A stretch of DNA of 64,000 bases, taken from Candidatus Jacksonbacteria bacterium RIFCSPLOWO2_02_FULL_44_20 (GTDB lineage: Bacteria > Patescibacteriota > Patescibacteriia > UBA9629). This document shows, piece after piece, positions 47,824-49,705 of the stretch. The DNA is taken from assembly GCA_001818155.1 (NCBI GenBank), contig MHJU01000036.1:3615-67614 (forward strand), in the 5' to 3' direction. A program made the translations under genes and the position numbers. Position 1 is the first letter of the stretch; every line of letters starts with the position of its first letter. The notes below the pieces were generated by a model. The model was not told where the DNA came from. It saw nothing but the letters and a program-made list of their open reading frames with translations, and searched no databases.

Positions 47824-49365
47824 ACTTTGAGAGTTTGATCCTAGCTCAGGGTGAACGCTGGCGGCATGTCTTAGGCATGCAAGTCGAACGGTCGTGCCGC
47901 AAGGCACGGTAGTGGCAAACGGGAGCATAACACACTGGTAATCTACCCTTAAGTCGGGTATAACCTGCCGAAAGGCGGACTAATTCCCGATGGTCTCCGA
48001 TGACTCATGTTGTCGGAGTAAAGGTCGCAAGATCACTTAAGGAGGAGCCTATGTCCCATCAGCTAGTTGGTAGGGTAATGGCCTACCAAGGCAACGACGG
48101 GTAGCGGGTGTGAGAGCATGACCCGCCTCACTGGGACTGAGACACTGCCCAGACTCCTACGGGAGGCTGCAGTCAAGAATATTCCGCAATGGCCGAAAGG
48201 CTGACGGAGCAATGCCGCGTGCCGGAAGACGCCCCTTGGGGTGTAAACGGCTTTTGCTGGGGAACAATTCCGCTTTCGGGCGGAACGAGCGTACCCAGAG
48301 AATAAGAGGCTGCTAACTCTGTGCCAGCAGCAGCGGTAATACAGAGGCCTCAAGCGTTACCCGGATTTACTGGGCGTAAAGCGTCCGCAGGCGGTCTCTT
48401 ACGTTTCCGTTTAAATTCCGATGCCTAACATCGGAGCCGGCGGGAATACGGAGAGACTTGAGGCCGGGAGAGGCGAGTGGAACGACTGGTGTAGGGGTAA
48501 AATCCGTTAATATCAGTCGGAACACCAAATGCGAAGGCAGCTCGCTAGAACGGTCCTGACGCTCATGGACGAAAGCGTGGGGAGAGAACGGGATTAGATA
48601 CCCCGGTATTCCACGCCCTAAACGATGGATACTAGGGATTGGAAGTATCGACCCTTCCAGTCTCGCTTACAAACTAGCTAACGCGTTAAGTATCCCGCCT
48701 GGGAAGTACGGTCGCAAGACTAAAACTCAAAGGAATTGACGGGGACTCGCACAAGCGGTGGAGCATGTGGTTTAATTCGACGATAAGCGTGGAACCTTAC
48801 CAGGGCTTGACATCTATCTGCACGTCAGGGTAATGCCTGACTCCTTCGAGGGTGATAGACAGGTGCTGCATGGTTGTCGTCAGATCGTGCCGTGAGGTGT
48901 ACCCTTAATTGGGGAAACGATCGCAACCCCTGCCCTATGTTACATTGTCATAGGGGACTGCCCAGCCCTTTGGGCGTTGCGCTTAAACGCGTGAATGAAC
49001 AGAGGGCTGGGAGGAAGGCGGGGACGACGTCAAATCAGCATGGCCTTTATGCCCTGGGCTACACACGTGCTACAATGGCTGGTACAATGGGATGCAAGGC
49101 CGTAAGGCGGAGCCAACCCCTAAAACCAGTCGTAGTTCGGATTGAGGGCTGCAACTCGCCCTCATGAAGCCGGAATCGCTAGTAACCGCGTATCAGCCAC
49201 GGCGCGGTGAATACGTTATCGAGTCTTGTACACACCGCCCGTCACACCAGGAAAGCTGGCAGTACTCGAACTTCGATGTATGTCGTTGGAAGGTAAGGTC
49301 AGTGATCAGGGTGAAGTCGTAACAAGGCACCCGTAGCGGAAGCTGTGGGTGAATCACCTCCTTTC
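47824..49365 (+). rRNA. rrs: 16S ribosomal RNA, about 1.54 kb
   Basis: 5' end ACTTTGAGAGTTTGATCCTAGCTCAG...GCATGCAAGTCGAACGG; internal GTGCCAGCAGCAGCGGTAATAC, ATTAGATACCCCGGTA and GTACACACCGCCCGTCACACC; 3' end GAATCACCTCCTTT (anti-SD). Confidence 0.9.
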
Positions 49366-49529
49366 TAAGGAGAAATTCTGTCGACTGTGTTGCTTTGCGA
49401 CACAGGAGGACTATCACTATTAGATGGCTATATTATCAAAATAAAATTCCGTTATGGCGGGATTTTTTGTTTTCACGCAGGGGTTGCGGGGTTCAAGTTT
49501 TTTTGATATTGTCTGTATGCTATTTCGTT

Positions 49530-49605
49530 GCCGACTTAGCTCAGCGGCTAGAGCAACTGTTTTGTAAACAGTAGGTCCGGGGTTCAAATCCCCGAGTCGG
49601 CTCCA
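49530..49605 (+). tRNA. tRNA-Thr(TGT)
   Basis: gccgacttagctcag..., anticodon stem actgt/acagt, loop tttgtaa, encoded CCA. Very similar to E. coli thrU. Confidence 0.8.
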
Positions 49606-49617
49606 GAGGCATAAGAG

Positions 49618-49694
49618 GGGCGCGTAGCTCAGCTGGTTAGAGCACGTCACTGATAATGACGGGGTCGGAAGTTCAAATCTTCCCGCGCCCACCA
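49618..49694 (+). tRNA. tRNA-Ile(GAT)
   Basis: gggcgcgtagctcagctggttagagca, anticodon stem cgtca/tgacg, loop ctgataa, encoded CCA. Confidence 0.85.
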
Positions 49695-49705
49695 TAAAAC
49701 CGTTT

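Follow-up and report, generated by a model that had tools for sequence, protein, structure and literature searches.

The 64,000-nucleotide stretch of DNA analyzed here (hereafter the window) is part of contig MHJU01000036.1 of Candidatus Jacksonbacteria bacterium RIFCSPLOWO2_02_FULL_44_20 (assembly GCA_001818155.1, positions 3,615 to 67,614 of the forward strand), and it carries a single bacterial small-subunit (SSU) rRNA gene at 47823-49364 on the plus strand. We conclude with high confidence that this is a functional 16S rRNA gene of an uncultured groundwater bacterium, Candidatus Jacksonbacteria (Patescibacteria, or Candidate Phyla Radiation (CPR); Parcubacteria group), probably single-copy, which stands in a transcription unit that lacks 23S. 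It is likewise very probable that its substitutions at the 515F and 806R primer sites are neutral, lineage-typical covariation without special function, where the practical effect is under-detection in amplicon surveys. Primer mismatches and unlinked rRNA genes are both already documented for Patescibacteria, and the finding is correct but ordinary. The lineage-specific details are a tRNA-Thr placed ahead of tRNA-Ile and a short-chain dehydrogenase/reductase (SDR) gene within an Ile-Phe tRNA cluster.

The 16S gene and its primer sites

The 16S gene aligns to positions 1-1533 of the 1533 positions in Rfam model RF00177 with a score of 1415.4 bits, a full-length covariance-model match above the gathering score of 50 and inside the range of full-length genes from relatives (1308-1477 bits). 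The gene spans 1542 nt and contains no large insertion or intron. Inspection of its functional regions reveals that the 530 loop, the 790 loop, the decoding site (around position 1400 and at 1492-1493) and the CCUCC 3′ end are all kept, and the conserved functional sequences GCGGUAAUAC, AUUAGAUACCC, UGUACACACCGCCCGUC, GAAGUCGUAACAAGG and CACCUCCUU were each found in the gene. The 1391R site is unaltered, as is the CCUCC at the 3′ end, the anti-Shine-Dalgarno sequence. The preliminary description of this DNA, made from the sequence alone, had called the locus CPR-like. That assignment is borne out by the SDR and aldolase proteins encoded on either side of the 16S gene, where identical proteins carry the names Candidatus Jacksonbacteria or Parcubacteria group bacterium GW2011_GWC2_44_17. 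The NCBI lineage places Jacksonbacteria within the Patescibacteria group, Parcubacteria group, and the name was first proposed in a study of the Rifle aquifer (PMC5079060). The locus is also present in GCA_001818175.1, GCA_003519505.1 and GCA_001000795.1 and on a 189-kb contig, and the sequence has been available in public records from the time of the earliest CPR genome surveys.

Substitutions at the 515F and 806R sites had been reported in the same description, and both are confirmed, with one mismatch per primer. At the 515F site (48321-48339) the sequence is GTGCCAGCAGCAGCGGTAA, in which window base 48332, E. coli position 526, is A. The target of 806R (48593-48612) has the sequence ATTAGATACCCCGGTATTCC and carries U at window base 48609, E. 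coli position 803. The 515F mismatch lies 8 nt from the primer 3′ end, while that of 806R lies 17 nt from the 3′ end, which is the fourth base from the 5′ end. Among other common primers, 27F has one mismatch (7 nt from the 3′ end), 1492R has two (15 and 17 nt from the 3′ end), and 341F, 926R and 1391R have none. The sequences of the modified primers 515F_Mod and 806R_Mod were taken from PMC10943839.

Each substitution is one half of an altered base pair. Position 526 has position 505 as its partner in an established element of 16S structure, the 530-loop pseudoknot (505-507/524-526), and the E. coli bases at 505-507 (GGC) were checked against the sequence. In the window this pair (48311..48332, plus strand) has changed from G-C to U-A, with U at 48311 and A at 48332, the latter being the 515F mismatch. 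The second pair, 779:803 of helix 24 (48585..48609, plus strand), has changed from C-G to A-U, with A at 48585 and U at 48609, the latter being the 806R mismatch. According to the consensus structure from Rfam, columns 779 and 803 form a pair, and for the window cmscan raises no non-canonical flag at that pair. Covariation points the same way: A779 occurs in 5/6 sequences with U803 versus 0/86 sequences with G803, counted over 92 readable sequences (90 listed loci, the window and E. coli). When helix 24 was folded thermodynamically the 779:803 pair was not recovered, and minimum-free-energy folds were set aside in favor of the Rfam structure and covariation. Both substitutions are the 3′ halves of compensated, structure-preserving pair swaps in a working rRNA. 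Sequencing error or pseudogene decay would not give such a pattern of compensated swaps.

To place the 515F variant among other genomes, an exact scan for the 19-mer was made with one genome per GTDB species (loci are cited below by our L numbers). The variant is present in at least 120 species genomes, overwhelmingly CPR by record title, and 119 of the 120 listed matches fall inside a 16S gene. Positions 505-507 read TGC in 108/120 of these genomes. The closest 16S sequences in this set share about 77-80% identity with the window gene, none above about 80%, and among the matches listed they are labeled Magasanikbacteria, Uhrbacteria, Falkowbacteria, Kerfeldbacteria or plain Patescibacteria. 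G803U is the rarer change, found in 5 of the 90 other listed variant-515F loci with a readable 806R target. No mention of the exact variant 19-mer was found in a literature search.

The scan also drew in two observations on the relatives themselves. Roughly 20 GTDB representative metagenome-assembled genomes named "uncultured Gammaproteobacteria" (binchicken / SRP co-assemblies), in addition to L010, L014, L036, L045 and L106, carry a CPR-type 16S in which U505-A526 replaces the G-C pair; the L010 gene ranks with the best 16S matches to the window within the matches listed, and the deposited labels look wrong or like placeholders. Insertions occur in several 16S genes of the set, including a group I intron in the Kerfeldbacteria relative L065 (1455-1885; RF00028, 62.7 bits) and genes extended to 1.69-2.47 kb in further relatives such as L074, L018, L010 and L089.

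The consequence for amplicon surveys follows prior work closely. Hu et al. 2024 (PMC10943839) report perfect matches to the 515F/806R pair in SILVA for 19.6% of Patescibacteria, a share that is 6.3% in Parcubacteria and 0.5% in ABY1. The shortfall of V4 primers for Parcubacteria had already been noted in a previous survey (Schulz et al. 2017, PMC5644168), and a 2026 follow-up extends the set of Patescibacteria primers (PMC13271367). The window shares with this V4 blind spot the C526A change at position 12 of 515F, which is the base made degenerate (N) in 515F_Mod (PMC10943839), and 515F_Mod (GTGYCAGMAGBNKCGGTVA) fits the window 16S without mismatch. It differs in G803U, at 806R primer position 4, which still escapes the Patescibacteria-optimized 806R_Mod. 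The effect of G803U on PCR should be small, given its position near the 806R 5′ end. The primer-site changes behind the earlier expectation of reduced amplicon recovery are genuine. The loss in PCR is probably below that implied by zero-mismatch in silico coverage, because there is one mismatch per primer and the 806R mismatch lies near the primer 5′ end. The locus serves as a worked example of CPR under-counting in V4 amplicon surveys, in which pair swaps that are neutral, preserve structure and are fixed across large clades alter the targets of "universal" primers.

Absence of 23S and the predicted 16S unit

Across the whole window, no Rfam model for large-subunit (LSU) rRNA or 5S rRNA scores at or above threshold. 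BLAST searches with 23S queries of E. coli and CPR origin likewise gave no match in the window, while the same queries detect 23S in 7 control loci; the CPR query segments came from L034, L104, L046, L069 and L063 and were added lest the E. coli 23S alone miss a CPR 23S. Within the window, 23S is absent from the 47.8 kb upstream and the 14.6 kb downstream of 16S. A further 7.8 kb of upstream sequence from another assembly contains dense protein genes and no 23S, which brings the upstream span to ~55.6 kb. An unlinked gene is defined by more than 1500 bp from 16S to the nearest 23S (10.1101/705046), and the window 16S exceeds this distance by a wide margin. The preliminary description had proposed that no 23S follows the 16S gene and that the rRNA genes are unlinked, and this proposal holds over the 14.6 kb downstream and ~55.6 kb upstream. 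Its phrase "downstream spacer" is a misnomer, as no 23S comes after.

A stand-alone 16S gene is the rule among the relatives. Of the 120 listed genomes, 43 have at least 1.8 kb of sequence after 16S, and in 41 of these no 23S lies within 1.8-6.8 kb. Only L046 and L069 have a downstream 23S, preceded in each by Ile-Ala, and use of the CPR 23S queries leaves this result unchanged. In agreement, an Rfam scan of 18 relative loci (139 kb) found 18 SSU genes but neither LSU nor 5S. Patescibacteria are among the clades reported to have clusters of exclusively unlinked rRNA genes, a trait tied to small genomes and symbiotic lifestyles (Brewer et al., ISME J 2020; bioRxiv 10.1101/705046). The window is like the unlinked genes of that study in having a 16S with no 23S within 1500 bp, and nothing essential differs; it adds the flanking anatomy of the 16S gene, with a predicted promoter, a predicted helix around 16S alone and a downstream tRNA cluster. 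Side by side with these loci stand two Patescibacteria with a permuted rRNA order, L034 (3054-6104) and L104 (3319-6747), where 23S lies directly upstream of 16S on the same strand with a gap of a few hundred nt.

Inspection of the sequence around the 16S gene reveals candidate signals for its own expression. A promoter-like site of the sigma-70 type (TTGACA-16 nt-TATACT; 47672..47699, plus strand) lies ~125 nt upstream of the 16S 5′ end, matches consensus at 11/12 positions and is the best site in the 3.3 kb scanned. A gene for a class I (DeoC/LacD-family) fructose-bisphosphate aldolase (46698-47675) ends inside the -35 of this site, such that there is essentially no intergenic space between the aldolase gene and the putative 16S promoter. 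The 16S gene is bracketed by a putative RNase III-type processing stem, with a leader strand at 47774..47802 and a trailer strand at 49406..49434 (both plus strand). Leader and trailer fold at -55 kcal/mol versus -23.4 for shuffles (z = -9.7), and the 13-nt leader core AGTGATAGTCCTC is paired at every position with 49406-49418. Past the 16S trailer and ahead of tRNA-Thr lies a terminator-like hairpin (49443..49476, plus strand) with a 10-pair stem and the T-rich tail TTGTTTTCAC; the stem is weak, with 3 G-C pairs, and the hairpin was seen again in a separate fold.

Taken together, these features suggest a model in which 16S would be transcribed from its own sigma-70-type promoter (47672-47699) and excised by way of a ~28-bp leader-trailer helix (47774-47802 with 49406-49434), with the weak terminator-like hairpin predicted to close the unit after the trailer. 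By analogy with the RNase III stems of canonical operons, a helix around 16S alone is what would be expected if the 16S precursor were excised singly. The locus illustrates a dispersed rRNA operon at sequence level in one Jacksonbacteria population, with its own predicted promoter and helix, where tRNA-Ile is kept and tRNA-Ala and 23S are gone.

Several points weigh against this reading. The term unlinked reflects the absence of 23S over 70 kb, with no measured 16S-23S distance behind it, and single-copy status is taken from one observation only, the clean assembly through the 16S gene. Promoter, processing helix and terminator are each predicted, and the terminator stem is weak. A leader-trailer duplex test applied to 55 relatives and the window, all with both 16S flanks, found a significant duplex (z < -3) in 10/56 sequences, the window among them; the test is crude, using 100-nt flanks and approximate gene ends, and the processing-stem model is not shown to be general among the relatives.

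Two other accounts of the 16S gene were weighed. The substitutions could be consensus errors, or the locus could be a chimera in which a 16S fragment is joined to unrelated flanks and a 23S gene is masked past the mis-join. rRNA genes are hard to assemble from short-read metagenomes, and N-masked gaps do occur inside 16S in two UBA bins. Public data speak strongly to the contrary. The exact SDR protein is encoded on at least 22 public contigs, from which four gap-free contigs of independent projects (Rifle aquifer MHJV01000027, ENA ERZ27254842, ENA ERZ4903070 and JGI 3300025311) were compared with the 3251 nt that cover 16S, the tRNAs and SDR. Identity is 99.5-99.97%, and the contigs are colinear with the window across 13.7-19.2 kb, reaching 7.8 kb or more upstream and 4 kb or more downstream of 16S. 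Both primer-site variants are present in all four and recur in the UBA bins too. Four colinear assemblies with both variants therefore rule out consensus error or a chimeric junction. Each substitution also has its compensating partner change, and at least 120 other species genomes share the variant 515F 19-mer. The probability that we assign to an artefact is negligible. With respect to the concerns raised at the outset over assembly error and a mis-assembled junction, the variants hold in at least four independent assemblies and are structurally compensated, and no chimeric join is seen across the locus.

The gene could alternatively be a decaying or orphan copy, a relic that sits beside a separate canonical 16S-23S-5S operon elsewhere in the genome. 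Genomes of such a mixed kind are on record (10.1101/705046), and the 23S of this organism was not located within the ~70 kb examined. A relic is nonetheless difficult to reconcile with a full-length covariance-model match that scores like the genes of relatives, with unaltered decoding-centre and anti-Shine-Dalgarno sequences, or with changes that are compensated as opposed to random. The strong promoter-like site and predicted processing helix also speak against decay. A repeated 16S would normally break short-read assemblies, and these run straight through; stand-alone 16S genes are, moreover, usual in this group. We consider an orphan copy highly improbable and retain a functional, stand-alone 16S gene as the preferred interpretation.

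The downstream tRNA and dehydrogenase cluster

Eight tRNAs were identified in the window with Rfam. After 16S come tRNA-Thr(UGU) at 49530..49605 (72.4 bits) and tRNA-Ile(GAU) at 49618..49694 (72.7 bits), each on the plus strand with an encoded CCA; ARAGORN and Rfam agree on both, in line with the order first described. The SDR coding sequence (CDS) follows at 49706..50449 (plus strand, 247 aa) and is in turn followed by tRNA-Phe(GAA) at 50481..50555 (plus strand; Rfam and ARAGORN), the usual partner of tRNA-Ile downstream of 16S in relatives. The SDR start lies 11 nt past tRNA-Ile by the ARAGORN tRNA end, correcting an earlier figure of 12 nt, and the SDR stop lies 31 nt before tRNA-Phe. The tRNA-Ala(UGC) of the window, at 29897..29972 on the minus strand, stands alone, 18 kb from 16S. 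An alternative identity for tRNA-Thr(UGU), namely a tRNA-Ala(UGC) with a one-base anticodon shift, was considered and rejected. G3:U70 is the alanine identity pair of the tRNA acceptor stem, and the window tRNA has C3-G70 in its place, along with G1-C72 and C2-G71.

The protein encoded by the SDR gene is a classical short-chain dehydrogenase/reductase with a match to adh_short_C2 (2.3e-63). It passes NCBIfam models at subfamily level only, namely glucose 1-dehydrogenase NF005559 (265.7 bits) and FabG-like NF009466, and it falls below the cut-off of the FabG equivalog TIGR01830 (224.6 bits versus 297.75). The original label of fabG-like CDS is acceptable as a loose name for the SDR family, while the missed equivalog cut-off makes classical SDR the best call.

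A canonical rrn operon, such as E. coli rrnA or those of many CPR (e.g., L046 and L069), has the order 16S-Ile(GAU)-Ala(UGC)-23S-5S. The window shares with it a tRNA-Ile(GAU) on the 16S 3′ side and a leader-trailer helix around 16S. In contrast, neither tRNA-Ala(UGC) nor 23S comes directly after 16S in the window, and 5S is absent as well; tRNA-Thr(UGU) precedes Ile, and a protein gene and tRNA-Phe come after. In the 43 relatives, tRNA-Ile(GAU) is the commonest content within 3 kb after 16S (22/43) and is often followed by Phe(GAA), Pro(UGG) and Gly(UCC); an Ile-then-Phe order occurs in L044, L072, L089, L102, L115, L117 and L124. Thr(UGU) ahead of tRNA-Ile was found in none of the 43, and no SDR homologue lies beside 16S in any of the 120 other listed genomes. 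Comparison of gene order suggests that the window is a lineage-specific elaboration of a conserved 16S-Ile-Phe layout, to which a tRNA-Thr would have been added, and the SDR gene looks like an insertion between the Ile and Phe tRNAs of a cluster conserved in relatives. The cluster of Thr, Ile, SDR and Phe may then represent both remnant and elaboration of an ancestral rrn spacer, in which tRNA-Ile(GAU) would have stayed with 16S, tRNA-Ala(UGC) would have moved apart to the opposite strand, and the SDR gene would have been inserted between Ile and Phe.

The tight packing of this cluster raises the question of where transcription from the 16S promoter ends. One long mixed operon could carry 16S, tRNA-Thr, tRNA-Ile, SDR and tRNA-Phe from the 16S promoter, in which case the tRNAs and SDR would not be a unit of their own. 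The tRNA-processing enzymes RNase P and RNase Z would then release the SDR message with almost no leader. Co-transcripts of tRNA and mRNA do exist, as in the E. coli thrU-tyrU-glyT-thrT-tufB operon, which resembles the window in having a protein gene directly after tRNAs with almost no spacer. The window CDS differs in having a tRNA 31 nt after it and no Shine-Dalgarno sequence, and its co-transcription is only predicted. A mixed operon would fit the short spacers on either side of SDR, the absence of a consensus promoter on the plus strand from 16S to SDR, and the weakness of the intervening hairpin as a terminator. The genome also seems to translate without Shine-Dalgarno sequences (2/36 genes), so a processed, short-leader mRNA would be translatable. 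Set against these points are the terminator-like hairpin itself, with its T-tract at 49443-49476, and two -10-like motifs, TATGCT 8 nt before tRNA-Thr and CATAAA 7 nt before the SDR ATG, that make internal promoters possible and resemble the -10-then-ATG pattern of other genes in the genome. On balance we regard a single mixed operon as possible but unlikely.

A narrower proposal concerns the SDR gene, which would be a tRNA-punctuated message with no promoter or Shine-Dalgarno sequence of its own. Under this proposal SDR and the tRNAs on both sides would share one transcript, which may start at the 16S promoter, and RNase P/Z-type processing would yield a nearly leaderless mRNA in a mitochondrion-like mode, within a genome seemingly without Shine-Dalgarno initiation that has kept the 16S anti-Shine-Dalgarno sequence. 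We hold this to be doubtful. The interpretation that we prefer remains a 16S unit with its own predicted promoter, helix and weak terminator, which would end ahead of tRNA-Thr.

Motifs ahead of start codons were counted over the genes of L001 and L128 (equivalent to window 39706-57924 and up to window 13901). Of 36 called genes, 2 have a Shine-Dalgarno-like motif ahead of the start (background 8.5%), and 14 have a -10-like TANNNT hexamer ending 4-12 nt before the start codon (background 12%). These counts suggest widespread leaderless mRNAs despite the CCUCC 3′ end of 16S. The missing Shine-Dalgarno sequence before SDR was rejected as a special feature, as almost no gene in the genome has one.

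With respect to the locus as a whole, it contradicts no expectation for CPR and raises no new question. What is mildly unusual is confined to the SDR gene between two tRNAs, the apparent genome-wide lack of Shine-Dalgarno sequences beside a kept anti-Shine-Dalgarno sequence, and a tRNA-Ile(UAU) elsewhere in the window.

Other features of the window

Elsewhere in the window, tRNA-Val(GAC) is followed by tRNA-Ile(UAU) at 5456-5623, the latter being the best-scoring tRNA in the window at 76.9 bits. In bacteria, AUA codons are usually decoded by a CAU tRNA with a lysidine modification, so an isoacceptor with UAU is uncommon. The relative L074 has this Val(gac)/Ile(tat) pair as well. Closer to the window start, a HicB-like antitoxin and HicA toxin pair (~1125-2165) lies just upstream of a glycogen-phosphorylase-family gene (Pfam). 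One open reading frame, no shorter than 3596 codons, fills the last 10.8 kb of the window (53211-64000, plus strand) and runs past the window end. Its calls in other assemblies are either split into 848 + 3551 aa or truncated, and its remote matches are to DUF2341 and to fibronectin-III-type surface proteins.

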